Shown here piece after piece: positions 1 to 64,000 of a stretch of 64,000 nucleotides of DNA; position 1 is the first letter of the stretch; each line of letters begins with the position of its first letter. The notes under the pieces are model-generated. The model was not told where the DNA came from. It saw only the letters and a list, made by a program, of their open reading frames with translations, and did no database searches. Where the stretch lies: contig CAWEFZ010000004.1 of assembly GCA_963808505.1 (NCBI GenBank), positions 507,058 to 571,057 of the forward strand. Reading direction: 5' to 3'. This DNA comes from an uncultured Alphaproteobacteria bacterium. Its GTDB lineage: Bacteria; Pseudomonadota; Alphaproteobacteria; Rhizobiales; Rhodomicrobiaceae. The position numbers were made by a program, and so were the translations under genes.

Positions 1-24
1 GGAGGTGTTAGCAATAGACTTGCC

Positions 25-960
25 TTACTGGTTTTCAGTTGGTTCCACAAGTCTGGAGCTGTCTTTTGGTTTCTCTCCATAGATTTCTAAAAAATCAGAA
101 AGTCGCATTCCAACTTTCGGCCGTTCGAGTCTCGCTCTGAAATTTCCGATAAAATCTTCTTCGCAGTCAACCCTCTGTTTCTGTCTTTGGTCCAGCATCT
201 GGAGTAATTGCTCTTCACTTTGAGACAGCTGTAAAAAGTGCTGCTTTACCCTAATTTCTATTATCTGTTTGCTTTCTTGAGCACTTCCTCCGTATTGACC
301 GCAATTAGCTTGCAACCATTCGTAAAAACTCGGAGAGTATTCAAGAAAATTTTCATCTTCGATGTTGGTCCAATAAATGTCAGCCGAACTTGTAGCTATC
401 ATGGCCTCAATATATTTCTTTGGAACTTCCATCTCCTCAAGGTAGGCTGCAATCTTTGTTAAGATAGGTTTGTAAATTTTTTCGGCTACGGTGGGCGATA
501 ATTCCCTAAAGCTAGCATCTGTAGTAGAAGGTCTATGAAGCCCAACATCGCCAGACCTGTATGGCGCACCAAACCAAATCAGGGCGCACGCGCTTGCACA
601 GACACAATCACTGCCATTGCAGACAATCTTATGGAAAGATTCGAGATGGAAATCAGAGAAAGTATCTAGACGCCGGGGTGCTATTGAACGAATATAGTAA
701 TTTCGGAACAGATGTCCAATTCTTATTGCTTCTTCGGCGTCTCCACCTGGAGATTGAAGGAGAAAAGCTGATAAAAATGGATGATTGTCTCGCAAAAAAG
801 TCTTGACTCGAAGATAGTCACCCTTAATTATTTCCCCTTTGATATACCCTTCAAGACAATGCGACTTGCCGTGTTGAAAACAGCCTACCTCGGCTCCCAG
901 GCATGGGATCGTCAGCGTCGCCAGCAGCCCCAACAATAGCCCTCGTAGCATCGTGCCCAT
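25..960 (-). CDS. Secreted ClpP/crotonase-fold protein (COG3904-like predicted periplasmic protein) with a C-terminal coiled-coil-like extension
   Basis: Complete 311-aa ORF. It has an N-terminal signal peptide (LLLGLLATLTIPCLGA). The LQSPGGDAEEAIRIG and CASACALIWFG motifs are typical of ClpP-fold periplasmic proteins. The gene is visibly AT-rich compared with its flanks. Confidence 0.55.
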   Translation of the reverse strand: MGTMLRGLLLGLLATLTIPCLGAEVGCFQHGKSHCLEGYIKGEIIKGDYLRVKTFLRDNHPFLSAFLLQSPGGDAEEAIRIGHLFRNYYIRSIAPRRLDTFSDFHLESFHKIVCNGSDCVCASACALIWFGAPYRSGDVGLHRPSTTDASFRELSPTVAEKIYKPILTKIAAYLEEMEVPKKYIEAMIATSSADIYWTNIEDENFLEYSPSFYEWLQANCGQYGGSAQESKQIIEIRVKQHFLQLSQSEEQLLQMLDQRQKQRVDCEEDFIGNFRARLERPKVGMRLSDFLEIYGEKPKDSSRLVEPTENQ

Positions 961-1098
961 GCGACGCCCCTAAAAAGTCATTACAAATGTTGGCGCTTGC
1001 TTAGCCGGTTATGAGGTTGCGGACAAGGACGTCAGCCACAGACAGCCACTGTGGAGAACCGAATCAGTGCTAAGTTGGTTAAAATTAATGGGCGCACG

Positions 1099-1395
1099 AT
1101 GCTCGATGGGCGGAATATCAAGCACAAGGGGCTTCGCAAGCTTTGGGTCGATAACGATCCGAGCGGCTTGAAAGGCGAGTGGGTGGAGAGAGCCGGTCGC
1201 ATTTTGCAAGCCGTTGACGCTGCAGCGACGCCGGAGGAGCTGCTTGGCGTTCCCGCGTACCGCCTGCATCCGCTCAAAGGAAGACGAAAGGGTACGTGGT
1301 CCGCGAGAGTGAGCAAGAATTATCGTATAACCTTCAAGTGGGCTGACGCTGGCCCCTACGACGTGGATTTGGAGGACTATCATGGCCGTGCATAG
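1099..1395 (+). CDS. higB: HigB-type toxin (RelE/ParE superfamily, plasmid maintenance killer protein)
   Basis: ORF 1051-1395, with the internal ATG at 1099 giving a ~98-aa product. IKHKGLRKLW and RLHPLKGRRKGTWSARVSKNYRITF match the HigB pattern. It overlaps the downstream HTH gene by 14 nt. Confidence 0.8.
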   Translation: MLDGRNIKHKGLRKLWVDNDPSGLKGEWVERAGRILQAVDAAATPEELLGVPAYRLHPLKGRRKGTWSARVSKNYRITFKWADAGPYDVDLEDYHGRA

Positions 1396-1711
1396 CAGCA
1401 GGGGGTTGCCGCCGACGCATCCCGGCGTCTACTTGCGCGAGGACGTGCTTCCCTTCATTGAGCCGAGCGAAGCCGAGTTCGCTGAACTGCTTGGCATCGA
1501 TGAGGAGCTTTTGCGGGCCATCCTTGAGCAGCGTGAAGGCATCAACACAGAGACCGCGTTGCGGCTTGGCAAGGCGCTTGGCAACGGCGCGCGTTTCTGG
1601 CTGACGCTTCAGATGCAGTTCGACATTTGGAGCGCCGAACGCGACTTCCAGGCGAGCATCCCACAGGTCAAGCTCACGGAGCTTGGAAGCGGCAAATATT
1701 TAAGTAAGTAA
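1382..1711 (+). CDS. higA: HigA antitoxin (XRE-family HTH)
   Basis: 109 aa. HPGVYLREDVL...FAELLGI...TALRLGKALGNGARFWLTLQMQFDIW is the canonical HigA/VapI HTH pattern. Its start is translationally coupled to higB. Confidence 0.85.
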   Translation: MAVHSSRGLPPTHPGVYLREDVLPFIEPSEAEFAELLGIDEELLRAILEQREGINTETALRLGKALGNGARFWLTLQMQFDIWSAERDFQASIPQVKLTELGSGKYLSK

Positions 1712-2125
1712 CTTTTTCAAAAATGTATGCGGTTTGGGGATCGAGGCCAAAAGCGACCTACCCTATGCCCTCAATAGGGAAGTTAACACCCAAAGATGTG
1801 TTGCCAGCTTTGCGCGTGAAGTGACGTGCCCCGCCCGGCGGACCGATGTCAAGCACGCTTGCTTTGCAGGATGCGAGGCTAAACCTCGTGCTTCTCCCCA
1901 AAGGGGAGAAGCTGAATAAACGTGGCCGGGTGAATGCCCCCGCTGCTTGAGAGTGATTCGCAAGGCGGCAAGAGCGCCGCAATGGCGATGAATATCGAGG
2001 CGGAGCGCGAAGGAAGGAAGGCCGCGACCGAAGCTCTAAGGCGGCGAAATCGCGCCGCTTGGTAGCCCTGTGGTAGCCCGGCGCTTCCAGGTTTTGCCTG
2101 CGGCGCGCTAACCCCTTGGTTTCGT

Positions 2126-2202
2126 TGGTAGCGGAGGAGGGACTCGAACCCCCGACACGCGGATTATGATTCCGCTGCTCTAACCGGCTGAGCTACTCCG
2201 CC
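2126..2202 (-). tRNA. tRNA with anticodon CAU (Met elongator, or Ile2 if lysidine-modified)
   Basis: The reverse complement GGCGGAGTAGCTCAGCCGGTTAGAGCAGCGGAATCATAATCCGCGTGTCGGGGGTTCGAGTCCCTCCTCCGCTACCA folds as a 77-nt cloverleaf. The anticodon loop is AUCAUAA, the T-loop is TTCGAGT, and CCA is encoded. It has a G1-U72 wobble. Confidence 0.9.
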
Positions 2203-4598: not shown

Positions 4599-4666
4599 GC
4601 GCTCCTGGCCAGCAAGGCAGAGCATAGCGCCCGCACTTTTGCCGTCCCCGATGCTCTCGCTTTTCT

Positions 4667-4707
4667 GTCGTCCCCGCGAAGGCGGGGACCCAGTATTCAA
4701 TGAGCGC
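4667..4707. repeat. REP-like palindromic unit, family B (GTCGTCCCCGCGAAGGCGGGGAC...)
   Basis: This 41-mer recurs exactly in inverted orientation at 63940-63980. Related units occur at about 37118-37140 and 50610-50760. Confidence 0.8.
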
Positions 4708-4848
4708 TGAGAGTATTAGATTCCCGCTTTCGAGCGTGTGAAAAAATCCGCCGGCATGCCTGGACGGCGCAAAAGCGTCCCCTCTCCCATCCGCATCCGC
4801 TTGCGGATATGTTGCCGCGAAGGCAGCGCCAACCTGCCTCCGGTTGTA

Positions 4849-5151
4849 CTAACGGGCCGCCTTGGGCTGATCCTCGGGGTTGTCCAGGTAAAGGAGCCCC
4901 TCCTGCAATGAGACGGTTTCCGTCCCGTCGAACTCATAGTCTTCCGCATCCGGCAGGCGAATAACGCAGCTTTTTTCGCAAAGCTGCAGTTTATCGCCCG
5001 CCTTGATGGTTTTCTCGTTCTGCTTGTCGCCCTCGATAACAACAATCGTTTGATCGGCGCTGTCGCGATTCGTCAGTGTAAGGGCGAAAGGCGAAGCAGG
5101 CCAAAACGCTAGAGGCGCCACGATCAGAATCCCGCAAGCAAGCCGCATCAT
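4849..5151 (-). CDS. Small secreted hypothetical protein (100 aa)
   Basis: Internal start MMRLACGILIVAPLAFWPASPFA forms a signal peptide. The upstream part of the 271-aa ORF is Arg/Pro-rich shadow sequence. Confidence 0.5.
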   Translation of the reverse strand: MMRLACGILIVAPLAFWPASPFALTLTNRDSADQTIVVIEGDKQNEKTIKAGDKLQLCEKSCVIRLPDAEDYEFDGTETVSLQEGLLYLDNPEDQPKAAR

Positions 5152-7481: not shown

Positions 7482-7912
7482 CTTATCGTTCGAACTTCTC
7501 GAACCGTAGGGCGGCGGGCGATTTTCGTAACGCCGGGCATGGTTAAAATCGCACGGGTTAACGGCCGCCGGAGTGGCGGTTTCCCGCGGACTTTTCCTAC
7601 GGAATCCGCCCGAAAATGCAAAAAAAGCCGGATTCGACGCGAAAAAAGCGAGTCGGAAATCCTAGTTAACGGTTCTAAAGTTGCGCGCGTCAACCAAGAA
7701 TCCGGGCCTGAGGTTGTGGGCGCGCGGTTCGCAACCGCTTTGGATATTGCGGCGCTGGCGTATTTTTCCAAGGAAAACCAATGCGATAGGCGCGTTTAAC
7801 GCGCACGCAAGGCGCTTTCGGCTATACTGGCCGTAATGAGGGAAAAAGGGGCAAAAACCGCGAAGTGGCGGAACCTTATTCCGGGGCGCCAAGGCTAAGA
7901 GCGGGTTAACGG
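7482..7912 (+). repeat. Copy 1 of an unclassified ~425-bp interspersed non-coding element
   Basis: Aligns by eye over its full length with 58508-58929 (+) and 63445-63866 (-). The three copies share GTTAACGG motifs, TTAACCAT, GANTC sites and hairpins. Confidence 0.85.
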
Positions 7913-19017: not shown

Positions 19018-19156
19018 CGTCATCCCGCCCAAGCGAAGCGCGAGCCGGGATCGCACAAAATCAGCGCCGCGATTTATTAAGTTCCCGGATAAAGCTCCGC
19101 CTTTCCGGGACGAACAAAGGGCATCCGTTGGCTTCATTGGGAAACTCTGCTTAGCC
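19018..19156 (+). repeat. Composite REP-like element, family A
   Basis: CGTCATCCCG..CAAGCGAAGCGCGAGCCGGGATCG...TCCCGGATAA.GC..CGCCTTTCCGGGA...CATCCGTTGGCTTCATTGGGAAACTCTGCTTAGC. Closely related copies occur at 44362-44478 (+) and 58312-58415 (-). Confidence 0.75.
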
Positions 19157-21960: not shown

Positions 21961-22080
21961 GAACCATCGGCGCCGCTTCGCCTTCGAGCGCCGCCTTGCA
22001 AACACATGGCAAAATCGCGCGTCTTCTCTCCGGGATCAAGTCCGTAATCGTAACGGTGGCGATCACTTCCGCGCCACTAT
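21961..22080 (-). pseudogene. Decayed duplicate of the 3' end of the MaoC dehydratase gene
   Basis: Aligns with 22340-22470. AEVIATVTITDLIPERRRAILPCVCKAALEGEAAPMV matches AEVIATVKITDLLPEKRRAIFSCVCKVAGKAVLEGEAVLMV, with a 12-nt gap. It is in frame with the ribF upstream ORF. Confidence 0.8.
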
Positions 22081-22127
22081 GCGCCAGGGATCGCCGCAGC
22101 CGCCGTCTTGGCCAACCACTCTCCTTT

Positions 22128-22220
22128 GTCATCCCGGAAGACGCTTGCGGCTATCCGGGATCGTTCCGGGCCGCAGCGCCTTTTGCGATCCCGGCTCGCG
22201 CTTCGCTTGGCCGGGATGAC
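22128..22220. repeat. ~95-bp palindromic MITE/REP-like unit, family A (GTCATCCCGG...CCGGGATGAC)
   Basis: Near-identical in architecture to 42785-42880. It has terminal inverted repeats GTCATCCCGGAA / CCGGGATGAC. Confidence 0.75.
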
Positions 22221-22316
22221 GAAGGGAGAAGCTGTCGGCCGGAATGATGCGATCTGCAGGCCGAATTGGCGGAGGCTGCTTAACTGTCCGCCTCCCCTCT
22301 GCGGCGCGCGCCGCGC

Positions 22317-22760
22317 TTATTTTTTCGGCGCGCGCGAAGGAACCATCAGCACCGCTTCCCCTTCGAGCACGGCCTTGCCGGCGACCTTGCAGACACACGA
22401 GAAAATCGCGCGCCTCTTCTCGGGGAGCAGGTCCGTAATCTTCACGGTGGCGATCACTTCCGCGCCGATATACACGGGCGCCTTGAAGTTCAGCGTCTGG
22501 GAGACGTAGATGCAGCCCGGCCCCGGCAGACGCGTGCCGAACAGCGCCGAGATGTAGGAGGCGGTGAGGATGCCGTGCGCGATGCGCTGCTTGAAGGGGG
22601 TGGCGGCGGCGTAGGCGTCATCGAGGTGAACGGGGTTGAAGTCGCCCGAGATGCGCGCGAAGGCCTCGATCTCTTCCGCCGTGACCGTGTGGGCGAGGCT
22701 CTCATTCATGCCGGCGGAGAGATCCTCGAAATAAAGCCCCGGCGCGATGTCGATTGGCAT
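22317..22760 (-). CDS. MaoC-like (R)-specific enoyl-CoA hydratase (hot-dog fold)
   Basis: ISGDFNPVHLDDAYAAATPFKQRIAHGILTAS is the hydratase motif. The internal start MPIDIAPG gives 147 aa. Confidence 0.85.
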   Translation of the reverse strand: MPIDIAPGLYFEDLSAGMNESLAHTVTAEEIEAFARISGDFNPVHLDDAYAAATPFKQRIAHGILTASYISALFGTRLPGPGCIYVSQTLNFKAPVYIGAEVIATVKITDLLPEKRRAIFSCVCKVAGKAVLEGEAVLMVPSRAPKK

Positions 22761-37004: not shown

Positions 37005-37191
37005 TGCCGGCTGGCTCATCGTCAGGCGATGCGCCGGGCGTCCTGGCCCCGCGTGAGCGGGGAAACAATCTCATATCCGCACGAACATCTCAGACATTGC
37101 GGTCCAGCCGCTTTTCCGTCGTCCCCGCGAAGGCGGGGCCGGGAATGACGCCGAAGGGCATGAGGCCGATTCCGGCATTAAGTCCGATGCT

Positions 37192-42784: not shown

Positions 42785-42880
42785 GTCATCCCGGAAAGGC
42801 GAAGCCAATCCGGGATCGTAACAATGCGATACGCTCGCCTCTTTGCGATCCCGGCTCGCGCTTCGCTTGGCCGGCATGAC
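42785..42880. repeat. ~95-bp palindromic MITE/REP-like unit, family A
   Basis: GTCATCCCGGAAAGGCGAAGCCAATCCGGGATCG...GCGATCCCGGCTCGCGCTTCGCTTGGCCGGCATGAC. It is a sister copy of 22128-22220. Confidence 0.75.
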
Positions 42881-43215
42881 GATCCAGATACCGCAAGCCG
42901 ATGTCATAAAGATAGGTTACAATCGGCGTCTTGGTGAACGGGACGAGGATTGCGATGTCGAACCCGAGATTCAGCGCAAGCCGATAGAGGCCAAGCGCGA
43001 GCCCGGTCCATGCGGAGGGTCTCGCCTTGCGGAATGCGAGGACGAGCAGAAACGCCGCGAAACCGCCGCCCGCGTCGGCCATCGATGACTCGAAAAGCGG
43101 TTGCGAAATGAGGAGCTGTCCGCTTCTGTCGAAAAAACAGGAACGACAGGGTAAATGGGATAAGCCAGGACAAAATGCCCAGGCCGGCGGCGCGAACTGT
43201 GACAATTTTTTCCAT
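42786..43215 (-). pseudogene. Small (3-4 TM) membrane protein gene, apparently frameshifted in a T6 run; its 3' end is read out of the family-A repeat
   Basis: ORF 42904-43215 (MEKIVTVRAAGLGILSWLIPFTLSFLFF...) and ORF 42786-43238 (...DRSGQLLISQPLFESSMADAGGGFAAFLLVLAF...) join seamlessly if the run 43132-43137 has 5 bases rather than 6. Confidence 0.4.
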
Positions 43216-44361: not shown

Positions 44362-44478
44362 CGTCATCCCGGTCAAGCGAAGCGCGAGCCGGGATCGTAA
44401 AAAAATCAGCGCTGCGATTTATTACGGTCCCGGATAAGGCTTCGCCTTTCCGGGAAGACGAACAAGGGGCATCCGTTA
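44362..44478 (+). repeat. Composite REP-like element, family A
   Basis: A sister copy of 19018-19156. Confidence 0.75.
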
Positions 44479-48882: not shown

Positions 48883-49010
48883 GCGCGCGCCTGGACGCCG
48901 AGTACCCAAGCGCCAAAAGTCCTGGCCGCTTTCGGCGTGTGAAAAAATCCGCATACGCCGGAATTTGCGCCGCAGCTCGCCTCTCCCCCTGGGAGAGGGG
49001 ACGCATGCTC

Positions 49011-55246: not shown

Positions 55247-55960
55247 ATGCGCGAACTTGTCCTCGACACCGAGACGACCGGGCTCGACCCGAAGGACAAT
55301 CACCGCATCATCGAGCTGGCTTGCGTCGAACTCATCAATTTCATCCCGACCGGCGCCACGTGGCATTGGTATTTCAATCCCGAGCGCGACGTGCCGAAAT
55401 CCGCGACCGAGATCCACGGCCTGACGGGCGCCTTTCTGGCCGACAAGCCGCTGTTCGGTTCGATCGCGGCGGACATCGTCGCGGCGCTGGGCGACGCGCG
55501 GCTCATCATCCATAACGCCGCCTTCAACGTCGGCTTCCTCAACGCCGAATTCGGCCGGCTCGGGCTTCCGCCGCTCAGCATGGAGCGCGTCACCGATACG
55601 CTGGCGCTCGCCCGCCGCAAGCACCCCGGCAGCCCCAACAATCTCGACGCGCTGTGCCGCCGCTACGGCATCGACAATTCGAAGCGCGAGAAGCACGGCG
55701 CGCTGCTCGACAGCGAACTCTTGGCGGATGTGTATCTGCGGCTCGTCGGCGCGGAGCAGGCCGGCCTCAACCTGATGACGCACTCGGCGTCCGAACAGGC
55801 GGAGGCGGCCGAAGCGGCGGTGCAGGTGCGGCTGAAGCCCTTGCCGCCGCGCATCACGGCGGAGGAGGAAGCCGCGCACGCCGCTTTCGTCGCGACGCTC
55901 GGCCCGAAGGCGATCTGGGCGCGCTATGCCGCGCCCGCGCCGGAGCAGTCCGCGGCTTAG
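55247..55960 (+). CDS. dnaQ: DNA polymerase III epsilon subunit (3'-5' exonuclease)
   Basis: ExoI LDTETTGL, ExoII IIHNAAFNVGFL and ExoIII HGALLDSELLADVY. Confidence 0.95.
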   Translation: MRELVLDTETTGLDPKDNHRIIELACVELINFIPTGATWHWYFNPERDVPKSATEIHGLTGAFLADKPLFGSIAADIVAALGDARLIIHNAAFNVGFLNAEFGRLGLPPLSMERVTDTLALARRKHPGSPNNLDALCRRYGIDNSKREKHGALLDSELLADVYLRLVGAEQAGLNLMTHSASEQAEAAEAAVQVRLKPLPPRITAEEEAAHAAFVATLGPKAIWARYAAPAPEQSAA

Positions 55961-56094
55961 TCATCCCGGCCAAGCGAAGCGCAGAGCCGGGATCTGCCTG
56001 CGATAACGTCCCGTGTCTGCGCAGTCCGCGCCTTGCCGCCACAACAAGCCGAGCGCCACTTTGTGTTCCCGGTCACGACTGTTATAGTGCGTCT

Positions 56095-56397
56095 ATGATC
56101 AAAAAGCGCGAAATGGTCGACGAGAAAGTGACCAAGGTTGTCAACGCGGTGCTCAAGGAACGCATGGAGCGGTTCGGCTTCCAGCGGGCGACGGTGCTCG
56201 TGGGCCAAGATCACGATGGGGACCCGGTGCTGCTGATCGATGCCGACTACGCATACTCAAGCGACCCCATAGACGTTCGCGCAACGGTTGGCCTTGTCAG
56301 CGCGCTACGTGACGCCCTTGAGGACATCGGTGAGTTTCGCTTCCCGCACGTCCGGCACCATTTCGATGAACGGCAGCGCACGGCGAAATCGGCGTGA
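56095..56397 (+). CDS. Hypothetical 100-aa protein, upstream partner of an overlapping two-gene module
   Basis: This is the internal ATG of ORF 55654-56397. The stop overlaps the next start (ATGA). VLVGQDHDGDPVLLIDADY is only faintly reminiscent of minimal nucleotidyltransferase cores. Confidence 0.55.
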   Translation: MIKKREMVDEKVTKVVNAVLKERMERFGFQRATVLVGQDHDGDPVLLIDADYAYSSDPIDVRATVGLVSALRDALEDIGEFRFPHVRHHFDERQRTAKSA

Positions 56398-56861
56398 AGG
56401 CGCCGGAGCTGATCGCCCAGGCGAACAGGTTGGCGAAGGCTACTGGTCGCAAGCCTCTCCAAGTCGACCTCAAGCGTGCGGTTAGCGCAGCATACTACGC
56501 CATGTTCCACGCGATGGCGAAAGAGTGTGCGGACACGATAGCGGGCACCGGGCGACATCGCAGCGATAAGGCGTGGGTTCAGGTCTATCGAGCCTTAGAG
56601 CACGGCGTCGCGAAAAACGCCTGTAAACAAGTTAGGAACAAGGGTTTTCCACCTCAGATTGTCAGTTTTGCCGACACGTTCGTTGCTCTGCAAGAAGAGC
56701 GGCACTCCGCGGACTACGACCCGCAATCTTGTTATGCGCGGGCAACCGTAACCACGCTAGTTGCGAATGCGGCTCAGGCGATAGCCGATTTGGCGCAAGC
56801 CCCGAGGTTCGATAGACGTGCGTTTGTGGCGCTGGTGCTGCTCAAGGATCAAAAACGATAG
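56394..56861 (+). CDS. All-alpha 155-aa protein with HEPN-like features
   Basis: AQANRLAKA...LKRAVSAAYYAMFHAMAKECA and LQEERHSADYD resemble HEPN-domain helices and the R..(a)DY motif. The start is coupled to the upstream ORF. Confidence 0.55.
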   Translation: MKAPELIAQANRLAKATGRKPLQVDLKRAVSAAYYAMFHAMAKECADTIAGTGRHRSDKAWVQVYRALEHGVAKNACKQVRNKGFPPQIVSFADTFVALQEERHSADYDPQSCYARATVTTLVANAAQAIADLAQAPRFDRRAFVALVLLKDQKR

Positions 56862-56949
56862 CCCCTCTTGGCGTTCGGGTAGGGCTGCCCTTCCTCAAGA
56901 ATCAGCATCGGCAACTCGTAGAGCCCGCGGAGCCTGATGCGGCGGTTCA

Positions 56950-57082
56950 CGCGCAGCTCAAACCCTTGCTGCCGCGCATCACGGCGGATGAGGAAGCGCG
57001 CACGCCGCGTCGCTCGGCCCGAGGGCGATCTGGGGGCGCTATGCGCATGCGCCGGAACAGTCTGTCGCTTAACGCTGAAAAC
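56950..57082 (+). pseudogene. Decayed duplicate of the dnaQ 3' end
   Basis: Aligns with 55817-55960 at roughly 80% identity by eye, with three short gaps, including the region around the stop. Confidence 0.8.
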
Positions 57083-58311: not shown

Positions 58312-58415
58312 AAGCGAAGCTAAGCAGAGTTTCCCGATGAAGCCAACGGATGGTTTGCTTGTCATGTGTGGATGGCCTTCGTTCGTCGTCCCGGAAAGGC
58401 GAAGCCTTATCCGGG
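58312..58415 (-). repeat. Composite REP-like element, family A (partial)
   Basis: Its reverse complement shares TCCCGGATAAGGCTTCGCCTTTCCGGGACGA...CATCCGTTGGCTTCATCGGGAAACTCTGCTTAGC with 19018-19156. Confidence 0.7.
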
Positions 58416-58507
58416 ACGGCGATGCATTGGGCAAATCGACGGAGTTTGCGTAGCGTGGAAAAGGCCGCACAGCATACGCCGCGCGCGGTCCCTCGCCCTC
58501 CCATGCG

Positions 58508-58929
58508 CCTTACAGTTCAAGATTCTCGAACCGTAAGGCGGCGGGCGACGGCCGTGGGCCGCGTCATGGTTAAAATCGGCCCAGGTTAACGGCCGAAAAG
58601 GCGAAGGTTTTTCGCGGGCTTTTCCTACGAATCGCTACGAAAAATACGAAAAAACCCGATTCGACCCCGAAAAAAGCGAGTCGGAAATCCTAGTTTACAG
58701 TTTTATTGTTGCGCGCGTTAACCACGAAACCTATCCTGAGATTGCCGGAGCGCGCGTTGCAACCGCGCGGACTCTCGCGCCGCTGGCGGAATTTCGCTAG
58801 CAATATCAACGCAATGGCCCCGTTTAACGCGTCCGCAAGGCGCTTTCGGTTATGATGAACAGAATGAGGGGAAAAGAGCGAAAAACCGTGAAGTGGCGTA
58901 ACCTTATTCAGCTGCGCCAGGGTTAACGG
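58508..58929 (+). repeat. Copy 2 of the ~425-bp interspersed non-coding element
   Basis: See copy 1. This copy lies just 3' of secB. Confidence 0.85.
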
Positions 58930-58983
58930 AGGGTGAACGCCATCGCCGGCGCCGGGGAAATTTATTAGTTAGACAGAGCCAAT

Positions 58984-62489: not shown

Positions 62490-63440
62490 ATGCCGAACCT
62501 TATCAAGCCGCCGAAACTTGCCGCGCAAACAAGCCTCAACCGGCGCGGCGGCAAGCGCGGCGATGCGGCCTACATTGCGGCGCGTCTCAAGGCGCCGGAC
62601 GCGAAGGTTCTGGCGCTGATAGACTTGCGGGTTCCGATCATCCCCTCGGCGGACAGGGCTACGGCGCGCATCCGCTGGCTATCCGTGGCGGAGGCGGAAG
62701 CGCTGGCTACGCCGGCCGAGTTTGTATTCCTGGGCGACGGCGAAGCCGGCGCCGCCGTGTTCGCCCGCAACGTCCAGCCTTTTCAAATCGCGCATGCGCC
62801 GCCCGCCGCCGAGGCGCTGAAGCCGCTGGTCGATCTGCGCTCTCTCGCCTTGCAGGGCGCGCTTCGCGAGGCGGAGCTGATGATCGCCTCGCAGGCGCGC
62901 GCGATCCTCGGCTGGCATGCGCTCAACCGTTGCTGCGCGCGCTGCGGCGCCCGCTTGCGCGTCGATGAAGGCGGCTGGCGGCGCACGTGCCCGGCCTGCG
63001 GGCTCCACGCCTTTCCGCGCACCGACCCCGCCGTCATCATGCTCGTCACGCATGGCGGCCGCTGCCTGCTCGGGCGCGAGAACCGCTTCCCCGGCAAGAT
63101 GTATTCGGCGCTGGCGGGCTTCGTCGAGGCGGGCGACGACATCGAGAACGCCGTGCGCCGCGAGGTGGAGGAGGAGGCGGGCGTCGCGGTCGGCGCGGTG
63201 CGCTATGTGGCGAGCCAGCCCTGGCCGTTTCCGCATTCGCTGATGATCGGCTGCTGGGGCGAGGCGCTCGGCGACGCGCTGACGCTCGACGCTTCGGAGA
63301 TCGCGGACGCCCGCTGGTTCAGCCGCGAGGAAGCCGCCGCCATGCTCGCCTTCGCGCATCCGGACGGGCTGTTCGTCCCGCCGGCGATCTCGATGGCGCA
63401 CACGCTGATCCGCGGCTTCGTCGATGGCGCCTTCGGGTAA
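62490..63440 (+). CDS. nudC: NAD(+) diphosphatase NudC (Nudix with zinc ribbon)
   Basis: Zinc ribbon CARCGARL...CPACG and Nudix box GFVEAGDDIENAVRREVEEEAGV. SQPWPFPHSLMIG is also present. Confidence 0.9.
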   Translation: MPNLIKPPKLAAQTSLNRRGGKRGDAAYIAARLKAPDAKVLALIDLRVPIIPSADRATARIRWLSVAEAEALATPAEFVFLGDGEAGAAVFARNVQPFQIAHAPPAAEALKPLVDLRSLALQGALREAELMIASQARAILGWHALNRCCARCGARLRVDEGGWRRTCPACGLHAFPRTDPAVIMLVTHGGRCLLGRENRFPGKMYSALAGFVEAGDDIENAVRREVEEEAGVAVGAVRYVASQPWPFPHSLMIGCWGEALGDALTLDASEIADARWFSREEAAAMLAFAHPDGLFVPPAISMAHTLIRGFVDGAFG

Positions 63441-63444
63441 CCGC

Positions 63445-63866
63445 GCGTTAACCTCGATCGCCCTGAATTAGGTTACGCCACTTCGCGGTTTTCCGGCTTT
63501 TTCCCCTCATTATGGTCATTATAGCGCAAAGCGCCTTGAGGATGCGTTAGCATCGCCTATCGCCTTGGTTTCGCTTGGGAAAATGCGCCTACGCCGCGCG
63601 ATTCGAAGCGGTTGCGAACCCCGCGCCCGCAACCTTAAGCGAGGTTTCGTGGTTAATTCGCGCAACAAAAGAACCGTTAACTAGGATTTTTGAGTCGCAT
63701 TTTTCGCGTGTTTTTCAGCTTTTTTCGCGTTTTTCACCGGATTTCGTAGGGAATCGGCAAAAAACGCAGCCGGCTTTTCGGCCGTTAACCTGGGGCGAAA
63801 TTAACCATGCGACGGCGGTTCGAAATTCAGCCGCCGCTTACGGTTCGAAAATCTCGAACTGTAAGG
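63445..63866 (-). repeat. Copy 3 of the ~425-bp interspersed non-coding element (inverted)
   Basis: Its reverse complement aligns with copies 1 and 2. It starts 5 nt after the nudC stop. Confidence 0.85.
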
Positions 63867-63939
63867 CCGCGCAGGGCGCCGGGATCGGCCTCATGCCCTT
63901 CAACGTCATTCCCACGAAAGTGGGAATCCAGTAACCCCG

Positions 63940-63980
63940 GCGCTCATTGAATACTGGGTCCCCGCCTTCGCGGGGACGAC
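63940..63980. repeat. REP-like unit, family B
   Basis: An exact inverted copy of 4667-4707. It is preceded by a GTCATTCCCACGAAAGTGGGAATCC palindrome. Confidence 0.8.
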
Positions 63981-64000
63981 GGAAAGGCGGCTGCGTCCCT

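Follow-up and report, generated by a model that had tools for sequence, protein, structure and literature searches.

An undescribed non-coding cassette family

The 64,000-nt stretch of contig CAWEFZ010000004.1 analysed here, which as a whole is called the window, belongs to an uncultured alphaproteobacterium and contains three copies of an intergenic DNA element. Copy 1 lies between a parA-like gene and a convergent TPR gene, and copies 2 and 3 lie beside the convergent secB and nudC genes, respectively (Table 1). Our work identifies the element as a real, previously undescribed family of non-coding DNA cassettes of ~390-430 bp that is restricted to a Rhodomicrobium-like lineage of the Hyphomicrobiales. 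An nhmmer profile made from the three copies has exactly three full-length matches in the window, at 7482-7910 (+), 58509-58938 (+) and 63436-63865 (-), with E-values of 1e-141 to 1e-144, and apart from these it matches the window only at the self-complementary 5' hairpin. The copies are 72-76% identical to each other, with pairwise blastn values of 74-76%. The alignment of three copies over their full length, from which a preliminary description had started, is thus confirmed, and all conserved landmarks named there were found and their coordinates fixed. The boundaries given there hold for copy 1, whereas the homology of copies 2 and 3 extends ~10 nt further at the 3' end. Similarly, the proposal that each copy begins near the 3' end of a gene applies to copy 1 only, which starts 52 bp past the parA-like stop codon. 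Copies 2 and 3 are instead turned with their 3' end towards the stop codon of a convergent gene, at a distance of ~45-55 bp for secB and of ~5 nt, or with an overlap, for nudC.

The family extends beyond the window. The contigs of the metagenome-assembled genome (MAG) GCA_049279195.1, listed at NCBI as "Rhodomicrobium sp.", are 99.95% identical to the window, and the SecB protein of this MAG is 77-80% identical to those of the named Rhodomicrobium species. One of its contigs terminates inside copy 1, as expected because the element is a repeat; in practice, the element breaks short-read assemblies of these genomes. When a spurious 112-aa open reading frame (ORF) of copy 1 was compared to 1.84 billion representative proteins, 21 clusters were obtained at E<=1e-3, all of them annotated as 'hypothetical protein' and derived mainly from JGI metagenome contigs. 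Two of these clusters belong to MAG GCA_049279195.1: one corresponds to copy 4 (L038 10030-10420, ~70% identical) and the other to a fifth copy (P0262) that was seen as a translated fragment. The window genome therefore holds at least five deeply diverged copies (70-76% identity). A further copy, which has no 5' hairpin, is present on the minus strand of an uncultured alphaproteobacterial MAG that differs at the genus level (L005 1336-1728). Counts out of five given below refer to the DNA of copies 1 to 4 and of the L005 copy. With L005 included, all pairs are 71-76% identical, so that the divergence is the same within a genome as between genera. This speaks against a recent burst and is compatible with copies that were acquired independently, along with different islets, or with long-term selection or constraint.

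None of the database searches assigned the element to a described family, in agreement with the preliminary description, which had not recognised one. At the gathering threshold, Rfam reports only a tRNA in the whole window, and for copy 1 with its flanks it reports nothing even at E<=10, the HEARO and omega-RNA-type models included. No match to the element was found by blastn among 72,556 plasmids and 50,697 phages, and searches of the literature on Rhodomicrobium repeats and on TTAACCAT brought up nothing relevant. Scans with the exact 20-mer GAAGTGGCGNAACCTNATTC gave one true copy (that of L005) among the 10 matches listed for genome contigs, none among the seven listed for metagenome contigs and no match at all in viral contigs. 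This block is poorly conserved in the family, and AAATCCTAGTTAACGG or ATGGTTAA-N-GGTTAACGGCC are better probes; in viral contigs, AAATCCTAGTTAACGG had seven chance matches and no true copy. A concatenated six-frame pseudo-protein of 2202 aa had no match among the candidates listed from an index of 5.8 billion proteins. We therefore group the element broadly with bacterial intergenic or insertion repeats, outside every named family.

Two rearranged forms were seen in passing. In the translated fragment P0246, which comes from a JGI contig of 67.7 kb, the 5' part of the element occurs twice in tandem (DFRNAAAWVKSARLTAKRGGGVSYEI ... DFRNAVSWLKSAGLTAKCGGGVSYEI), indicating that partial tandem duplications exist. 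In another strain, the orthologue of copy 1 (L021 5585-5780) is broken after element position 288, and the interrupting sequence, read on the opposite strand, would encode a peptide similar by eye to the N-terminal part of IS5-family (DUF772-type) transposases.

The element is non-coding, because its frames switch between copies and a codon-position bias is absent. Most copies have stop codons in every frame, and the 21 translated fragments change frame between conserved blocks (WLKS..VNG versus MVKI..VNG), some of them continuing into a QGAxGYxGHNE frame. Variable columns, counted in the frame of the long copy 1 ORF, are distributed over the codon positions as 58/46/51 (p=0.53). This bears out the earlier statement that reading frames are not conserved and that substitutions lack a third-position bias. 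A hydrophobic peptide on the minus strand (IRLRHFAVF...SALR) was rejected as its start codon is not conserved.

One of the initial candidates was a structured non-coding RNA family. The size of the element, its block-wise conservation and several local hairpins would fit such a family: a GC-rich hairpin before CATGGTTAA keeps its pairing while its sequence differs, a short hairpin with a T-run follows GGTTAACGGCCG, and one copy folds better than shuffled sequences on the minus strand (z = -2.18). However, the whole-element z-scores of the other copies are 0.07 and -1.15, and RNAalifold found only 5-6 compensatory pairs among ~88, with covariation terms that are unfavourable for either strand (+4.5 and +3.8 kcal/mol), in tests that have low power with 4-5 sequences. 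Some local hairpins persist, but the central and 3' thirds are unstructured, and the 3' quarter folds even worse than shuffled sequence (z = +0.3 to +1.6). In the GGTTGCG hairpin (listed as inverted repeat in Table 1), direct reading shows mismatches that are compatible with G-U pairs on one strand in some copies and on the other strand in others, and it is thus not clearly an RNA helix. Finally, Rfam is silent, as mentioned above, and the element is framed by neither a promoter nor a terminator, terminator-like matches being no more frequent than in shuffled sequence. Global RNA structure is thus unsupported rather than excluded, and we regard a structured RNA family as highly improbable.

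Horizontal acquisition of the element

The copies sit in lower-GC spacers, with different types of genes on the two sides. Genes of accessory or defence type lie on the 5' side of the five copies, namely a parA-like gene, a TfoX_N gene with a phage-type ORF (GC 0.47), a gene for a 1566-aa TIR-NACHT protein, an M78 peptidase gene and a ParDE-type toxin-antitoxin pair, whereas the 3' end points at a conserved gene, i. e. the TPR gene, secB, nudC, glnD or uvrD. The M78 peptidase beside copy 4 (L038 7657-9530, DNA GC 0.52-0.56) is RmrA/CapP-like and is accompanied by a 129-aa ORF, a presumed regulator without match in Pfam or PADLOC. The TIR-NACHT protein beside copy 3 is of the STAND type (L011 11510-16210) and shows weak similarity to Thoeris/SAVED-TIR proteins.

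Comparison with relatives shows that the element DNA was acquired horizontally, by insertion or horizontal transfer, since it is absent from the same sites in close relatives. Genomes with 86-93% identical SecB proteins keep the block of nudC, the genes for a PRK-family kinase, PRA-PH and an MFS transporter, and secB, and have no element within 10 kb; likewise, no element follows uvrD in relatives with 87-92% identical UvrD. In these relatives the spacers beside secB, nudC and uvrD cannot be aligned and contain different genes in each genome. The sites are thus hot spots, and their exact insertion boundaries are unreadable.

One trace of an insertion is found in L005. Here, the last 62 bp of uvrD are present twice, as the functional end (1240-1302) and as a decayed copy (2044-2103), with a Smith-Waterman score of 39.5 against a null of 11.4 +/- 1.4. 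The two repeats bracket an insert of ~800 bp, of which the element forms the uvrD-proximal 400 bp. At the three sites at which the functional end differs from that of a close relative, L029, the decayed copy retains the state of the relative on direct reading, and this fits a displacement of the native uvrD end. A similar arrangement is present in the window at dnaQ, an RNase_T domain gene (55247-55960): a degenerate pseudo-end at 56936-57071 repeats its last 149 bp (55811-55959) with 79% identity and a local-alignment score of 68 versus a null of 10.5. Between the two repeats lies ~1 kb of DNA that contains a pair of small ORFs (56095-56397 and 56394-56861) but neither the element nor an integrase gene. 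Taken together, the uvrD and dnaQ signatures suggest that integration into gene 3' ends recurs in this lineage.

Conserved anatomy and motif content

Table 1. Positions of the three window copies, their neighbours and their conserved parts
Feature	Copy 1 (+)	Copy 2 (+)	Copy 3 (-)	Remarks
Whole element	7482..7912	58508..58940	63434..63866	copy 1: nhmmer E=1e-144 and alignments
5' neighbours	parA-like gene (stop 7429)	family-B small repeat, then divergent TfoX_N gene	family-C small repeat, then TIR-NACHT gene just past window end	
3' neighbours	convergent TPR gene (stop 8056)	convergent secB (stop 58984), ~45-55 bp from 3' end	convergent nudC, stop codon (63438-63440) overlapped by 3' end	
5' hairpin A	7482..7510	58509-58537	63837-63865	CTTAYNGTTCGA-loop-TCGAACCGTARG
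Invariant block	7538..7567	58565-58595	63779-63809	CATGGTTAAWWTCG-N-GGTTAACGGCCG
MVKIxxG-stop ORF	7539-7565	58566-58589	63785-63808	7 codons
A-tracts	7612..7660	~58639-58689	63686-63745	4-6 tracts, ~10-11 bp spacing
Most conserved block family-wide	7641..7696	58669-58724	63650-63705	GAAAAAWGCGASTC..AAATCCTAGTTAACGGTT...TTGCGCGCGTYAACCA
Inverted repeat	7712..7736	degenerate	63610-63634	GGTTGYG-N11-CGCAACC
-10-like hexamer	7823..7828 (TATACT)	58851-58856 (TATGAT)	63518-63523 (TATAAT)	
Candidate mini-ORF	7836..7898	58864-58926	63448-63510	20 codons
Conserved block	7854..7881	58882-58909	63465-63492	AAAACCGYGAAGTGGCGKAACCTWATTC
3' terminus	7891..7912		second site ~63436-63443 (GGTTACCC), overlapping nudC stop codon	two GGTTAACG-type sites ~12 bp apart; copy 1: GGCTAAGA + GGTTAACG

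Conservation within the element is significantly clustered: invariant columns counted in 15-column windows have a variance of 6.8 as compared to 3.6 after permutation, and none of 2000 permutations reached 6.8. About 53% of the columns are invariant among four copies. In the five-copy alignment the invariant core reads, from 5' to 3', CATGGTTAA..TCG..GGTTAACGGCCG; AAATCCTA.TT.AC.GTT; TTGC.CG; CAAGGCGCTT; TAT..T; AAT.AGGG.AA; AAAACC..GAA.TGGCG.AACCT.ATTC. Hairpin A is an optional part, as it is missing from both copies outside the window and thus present in three of the five. The invariant block that follows it consists of two GGTTAA(C) sites at a distance of ~16 bp and contains TTAACCAT on its other strand; it is kept in all five copies and visible in nearly all 21 translated fragments, as WLKS..VNG or MVKI..VNG. 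The A-tracts lie between the CATGGTTAA..GGTTAACGGCCG and AAATCCTA core blocks, and their positions are kept in 5/5 copies. In every copy, AA autocorrelation shows maxima at lags of 10-12 and 20-22 bp; such helically phased A-tracts predict a static bend. The GAAAAAWGCGASTC..TTGCGCGCGTYAACCA block contains two opposed GTTAAC-type sites and is seen in the 21 clusters as the peptide RIRREKCxSEILVNGxxVARVN. The AAAACCGYGAAGTGGCGKAACCTWATTC block is less conserved in the family, reading GAACTGGCG in copy 4 and in P0261, which explains why scans with 20-mers recovered little.

A short ORF of the MVKIxxG-stop type (ATG GTT AAA ATC ... GGT TAA) spans both invariant GGTTAA sites in four of the five copies. 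In copy 1 the spacer is 1 nt shorter, and the ORF is fused to a spurious 86-aa ORF annotated by gene callers.

Several motifs are strongly concentrated in the element. Nine of the 15 GTTAAC sites of the window fall within the 1.3 kb of element DNA (6.9 per kb versus 0.096 per kb outside, Poisson P ~1e-14), as do seven of the eight sites of the 8-mer GGTTAACG/CGTTAACC and all three TTAACCAT sites, and GANTC occurs 12 times in the three copies with 2.5 sites expected; since the copies are homologous, these counts are not independent observations. Within the window, the earlier impression that the motifs are denser than in the flanking DNA was therefore correct. The assumption of conserved GTTAAC positions holds for the 5' GGTTAA/GGTTAAC pair, which is invariant in all five copies, but each of the other sites is kept in only two to four of them; accordingly, ILVNG alternates with ILVYG in the translated fragments, and ARVN with ARVH, ARIK and others. 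The richness in GANTC sites is a property of the three window copies but not of the family, as the two additional copies have one site each.

These motifs had raised the idea of a reiterated cell-cycle module to which CtrA/SciP binds at TTAACCAT, with CcrM methylation of GANTC as its read-out. A CtrA circuit would be expected in Rhodomicrobium, a genus of budding Alphaproteobacteria. Moreover, the CtrA half site TTAACCAT is invariant in 5/5 copies, it is implied in most translated fragments, all of its window sites are inside the element, and GANTC is ~5-fold enriched in the three window copies. However, a full CtrA site (TTAA-N7-TTAA(C)) is found in none of the copies: on direct reading the TTAAC pair is spaced by 15-16 bp from start to start rather than by 11 bp, and no conserved -10 region lies downstream of TTAACCAT on its strand. 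The numbers of GANTC sites per copy are 4, 5, 3, 1 and 1, and no site is common to all copies, in contrast to the conserved sites expected of a CcrM/GcrA module; the copies are not located upstream of cell-cycle genes. Thus, the family-wide TTAACCAT motif is what stands of the CtrA/CcrM idea, and we consider a cell-cycle module very unlikely.

Two relatives have AT-rich, GTTAAC-rich non-coding spacers of 760-860 bp at the 3' end of nudC (L024 4806-5665 and L026 4922-5679), and the spacer in L026 contains a perfect TTAA-N7-TTAA. These spacers are unrelated to the element; homology was not significant (nhmmer E=0.15).

A second group of conserved features lies near the 3' end. Positions T1, A2, T3 and T6 of the -10-like hexamer are invariant in 5/5 copies, while positions 4 and 5 vary. 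The hexamer is followed by a spacer of exactly 7 nt and variable sequence and then, in four of the five copies, by an ATG codon. This ATG opens a mini-ORF, MR(G/E)KxxKT(A/V)KWRNLIxxxxG, with the same start and stop columns in 4/5 copies; copy 4 has ATA in place of the ATG. The stop codon falls in the terminal GGTTAA and is kept even where this site is mutated (GGCTAAG, GGTTAGCG, GGTTAATG). Hexamer, 7-nt spacer and ATG correspond to the geometry of a leaderless mRNA, and the mini-ORF is a candidate only. Sigma-54, ECF/EcfG, RpoH and extended -10 promoters as well as dif/Xer sites, oriT nic-like ATCCTAG, tRNA fragments and group II intron ends were sought by eye, and none was conserved or convincing.

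It is thus conceivable, if doubtful, that the element is a stand-alone small transcription unit, in which a long upstream regulatory region with GTTAAC/TTAACCAT operator-like sites and bent DNA controls a -10-only promoter. The product would be a leaderless mRNA that starts at or near the ATG and encodes a basic peptide of ~20 aa, or alternatively a short unstructured small RNA or an antisense RNA directed into the convergent neighbour, and the copies would form a paralogous small-gene family carried in variable regions. The invariance of T1, A2 and T6, the functionally critical positions of the hexamer, points in this direction, as do the fixed length of a spacer that varies in sequence, the shared ORF boundaries and the in-frame stop that survives mutation of GTTAAC. 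Downstream RNA that is less structured than shuffled sequence and block-wise constraint over the whole element are likewise in accord with it, and GY(D/T)GHNE, seen in the translated fragments, implies conservation of TAT(G/A)(A/C)T..AATGAG in other genomes. On the other hand, copy 4 lacks the ATG, variability in the mini-ORF does not depend significantly on codon position (5/9/12, p=0.24), and a number of peptide positions are free to vary. A -35 region is not recognisable, and a scanner for consensus sigma-70 promoters is negative for all copies; the ORF is not followed by a terminator, the stop codon would be retained by chance with an estimated probability of ~0.14, and conserved ORFs that have a usable start codon are missing from the other strand. 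In contrast to type I toxins, the peptide is hydrophilic, and it matches no family in Pfam or NCBIfam. If the leaderless gene were real, the 21 clusters would represent a multi-copy small-protein or small-RNA family that has been missed or mis-called as 'hypothetical proteins' of 60-180 aa.

Two known groups can be compared with such a transcription unit. The LDR and QUAD/SIB repeats of E. coli are intergenic, a few hundred bp long and present in 3-5 diverged copies per genome, each with its own promoter and a tiny ORF, and the LDR and QUAD repeats proved to be type I toxin-antitoxin loci. The element resembles them as a set of diverged intergenic repeats of a few hundred bp that were first seen as unexplained. 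In contrast to these repeats, its mini-ORF is hydrophilic and basic, lacks one ATG and has no clear coding signature, and neither an antisense RNA gene nor a terminator is recognisable. A type I toxin-antitoxin locus was therefore rejected: the only positionally conserved ORF is the hydrophilic 20-aa frame, and the hydrophobic minus-strand frame has no conserved start. Alphaproteobacterial small RNA families such as alpha-r14 and AbcR consist of diverged intergenic paralogues near accessory DNA with conserved upstream motifs or promoters. The element shares several diverged intergenic paralogues near accessory DNA and conserved motifs with them, but it has no Rfam match, intrinsic terminator or supported structure, and ~400 bp are conserved.

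A possible protein-binding platform and the neighbouring repeats

As a tentative interpretation, to which we lean without regarding it as probable, the element may be horizontally acquired cis-acting DNA that serves as a protein-binding or attachment (att) arm-like platform; its main rival is the small leaderless transcription unit discussed above. It would act as DNA, rather than as an RNA or protein gene, and be recognised by sequence-specific proteins. The two invariant GGTTAA(C) sites and the further GTTAAC-type sites, which occur in both orientations, flank the predicted A-tract bend and might assemble a nucleoprotein complex; an att arm, a site for an intasome or some other looped complex would have such a layout. 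A recombinase or regulator whose gene lies elsewhere would act on the element in trans, in which case small integrase-less islets that carry the element would behave as cis-mobilizable elements (CIMEs). The -10-like hexamer near the 3' end may in addition fire a short outward transcript. Support for this platform comes from a multi-copy and non-coding family without stable or covarying RNA, from block-wise conservation, the concentration of GTTAAC and the phasing of A-tracts in all five copies, from the absence of the element in relatives and the uvrD insert in L005, and from the contig break in copy 1, the lower GC content of the islets and the types of neighbouring genes.

Several observations weigh against the platform. 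Every site has different neighbours, contrary to what one site-specific integrase would bring about, and for a single att arm a conserved stretch of ~400 bp is long. The element has no sharp 5' boundary, hairpin A being part of three of the five copies. Flanking direct repeats of neighbouring gene ends were not detected for copies 1-4, and a search for GTTAAC sites outside the element and a self-blast of the flanks revealed no second islet end or partner site. Among the neighbouring genes scanned near all copies, none encodes an integrase, transposase or recombinase Pfam domain, in keeping with the earlier remark that no transposase is nearby. Moreover, five DNA copies were read, the orientation rule rests on these five, and to take the TPR side of copy 1 as the 'core' side is a judgement.

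Among known systems, CIMEs have lost the genes for integration and transfer but have kept attL and attR (ICEberg 2.0, PMC6323972). Like CIMEs or att arms, the element DNA is integrase-less and wedged against the end of a conserved gene; like attL and attR, the L005 copy is bounded by a direct duplication of the 3' end of its target gene; and the short repeated sites in both orientations around a predicted bend are reminiscent of arm-type sites with an IHF bend. Unlike in CIMEs, four of the five copies have no flanking repeats, so that att-like repeats are found in L005 only. Moreover, the neighbours differ from site to site, the islets share no genes, and no cognate integrase or integrative and conjugative element has been identified. 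The conserved length also sets the element apart from an att arm.

The same polymorphic, intergenic copies could be remnants of an old, inactive non-autonomous element similar to a miniature inverted-repeat transposable element (MITE), in which the conserved blocks would reflect mutational or alignment heterogeneity or past transposition signals. The element is indeed multi-copy and polymorphic between relatives, it is found together with two other small repeat families, and it has no recognisable function; furthermore, ~53% invariant columns come close to what star-like neutral decay would leave at ~27% pairwise divergence, a partly estimated figure. Decay does not, however, explain why conservation is clustered beyond all 2000 permutations, why 21 diverged clusters of other genomes retain these blocks, or why the divergence of the inter-genus copy does not exceed that of the paralogues. 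Terminal inverted repeats, target-site duplications, a defined 5' end and young, near-identical copies are also lacking. An inverted-repeat search in the three copies and their flanks returned only internal hairpins and no pair linking the termini, and local alignments of 3' versus 5' flanks gave null-level scores for copies 1-3 and copy 4, as the preliminary description had anticipated. We therefore rejected a MITE (pairs 70-76% identical) and consider a decaying relative of one unlikely. From the initial candidate of non-autonomous mobile or inserted DNA, the inserted nature remains, given the presence or absence between relatives and the duplicated target in L005, whereas the features that define MITEs are absent.

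MITEs and the ERIC, RIME, Correia and REP/BIME repeats are non-coding, multi-copy, intergenic, often located beside gene 3' ends, polymorphic and assembly-breaking. The element shares the non-coding, multi-copy, intergenic, polymorphic and assembly-breaking traits and the frequent location near gene 3' ends, but it has no terminal inverted repeats or target-site duplications and is larger than most of them (~400-430 bp). In addition, its copies are old (70-76%), with no young subfamily, and conservation is internal rather than terminal. PATEs derived from IS200/IS605 have a constant target tetranucleotide and subterminal hairpins at either end; the element has a 5' hairpin in three of the five copies and no 3' hairpin.

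It is tempting to speculate that the protein-binding platform represents a new cis-acting 'islet-end' module, a recombinase-less arrangement of GGTTAA(C) sites around a bend with an outward promoter that is recognised in trans, although we judge this specific form distinctly unlikely. With such a module, Rhodomicrobium-like bacteria could capture, move or insulate small defence or accessory islets at housekeeping gene ends. It would be a functional analogue of integron attC sites and pdif modules, with unrelated sequence and partner protein. Hot spots at gene 3' ends are widely observed and mostly explained only by flanking homologous recombination; a platform recognised in trans would provide a mechanism that lodges integrase-less accessory and defence islets at the 3' ends of core genes, and a sequence tag to find such islets in Hyphomicrobiales metagenomes. 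As the element is confined to one little-studied clade, its present value is moderate.

The region contains additional repeats and islands. A second repeat family of ~100-115 bp is palindromic, of the GTCCCGGA..TCCGGGAC type and 78-97% identical, with sites at 19018-19129, 22119-22222, 42785-42883, 44362-44477, 55956-55994 and 58319-58417 and at L038 17400-17543. One copy lies just 5' of element copy 2, and the translation of this repeat (RSRIAASGFRD) precedes the element in the metagenomic ORFs P0242 and P0259. A third family (~75 bp, 88-97% identical) occurs at 4658-4732, 37105-37176, 48926-48952 and 63878-63993, and one of its copies abuts the 5' end of element copy 3. A copy of this family (4603-4850) is missing in strain L019, indicating a recent insertion/deletion polymorphism. 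The first part of the window (1-2202), past the 3' end of a tRNA-Met gene (2126-2202, minus strand), has no similarity to L019, encodes a 311-aa ORF and HigB/HigA at a GC content of 0.44-0.57, and looks like a strain-specific island at the tRNA gene. Finally, a local direct repeat of 127 bp with 79% identity is present at 21961-22075 and 22340-22466.

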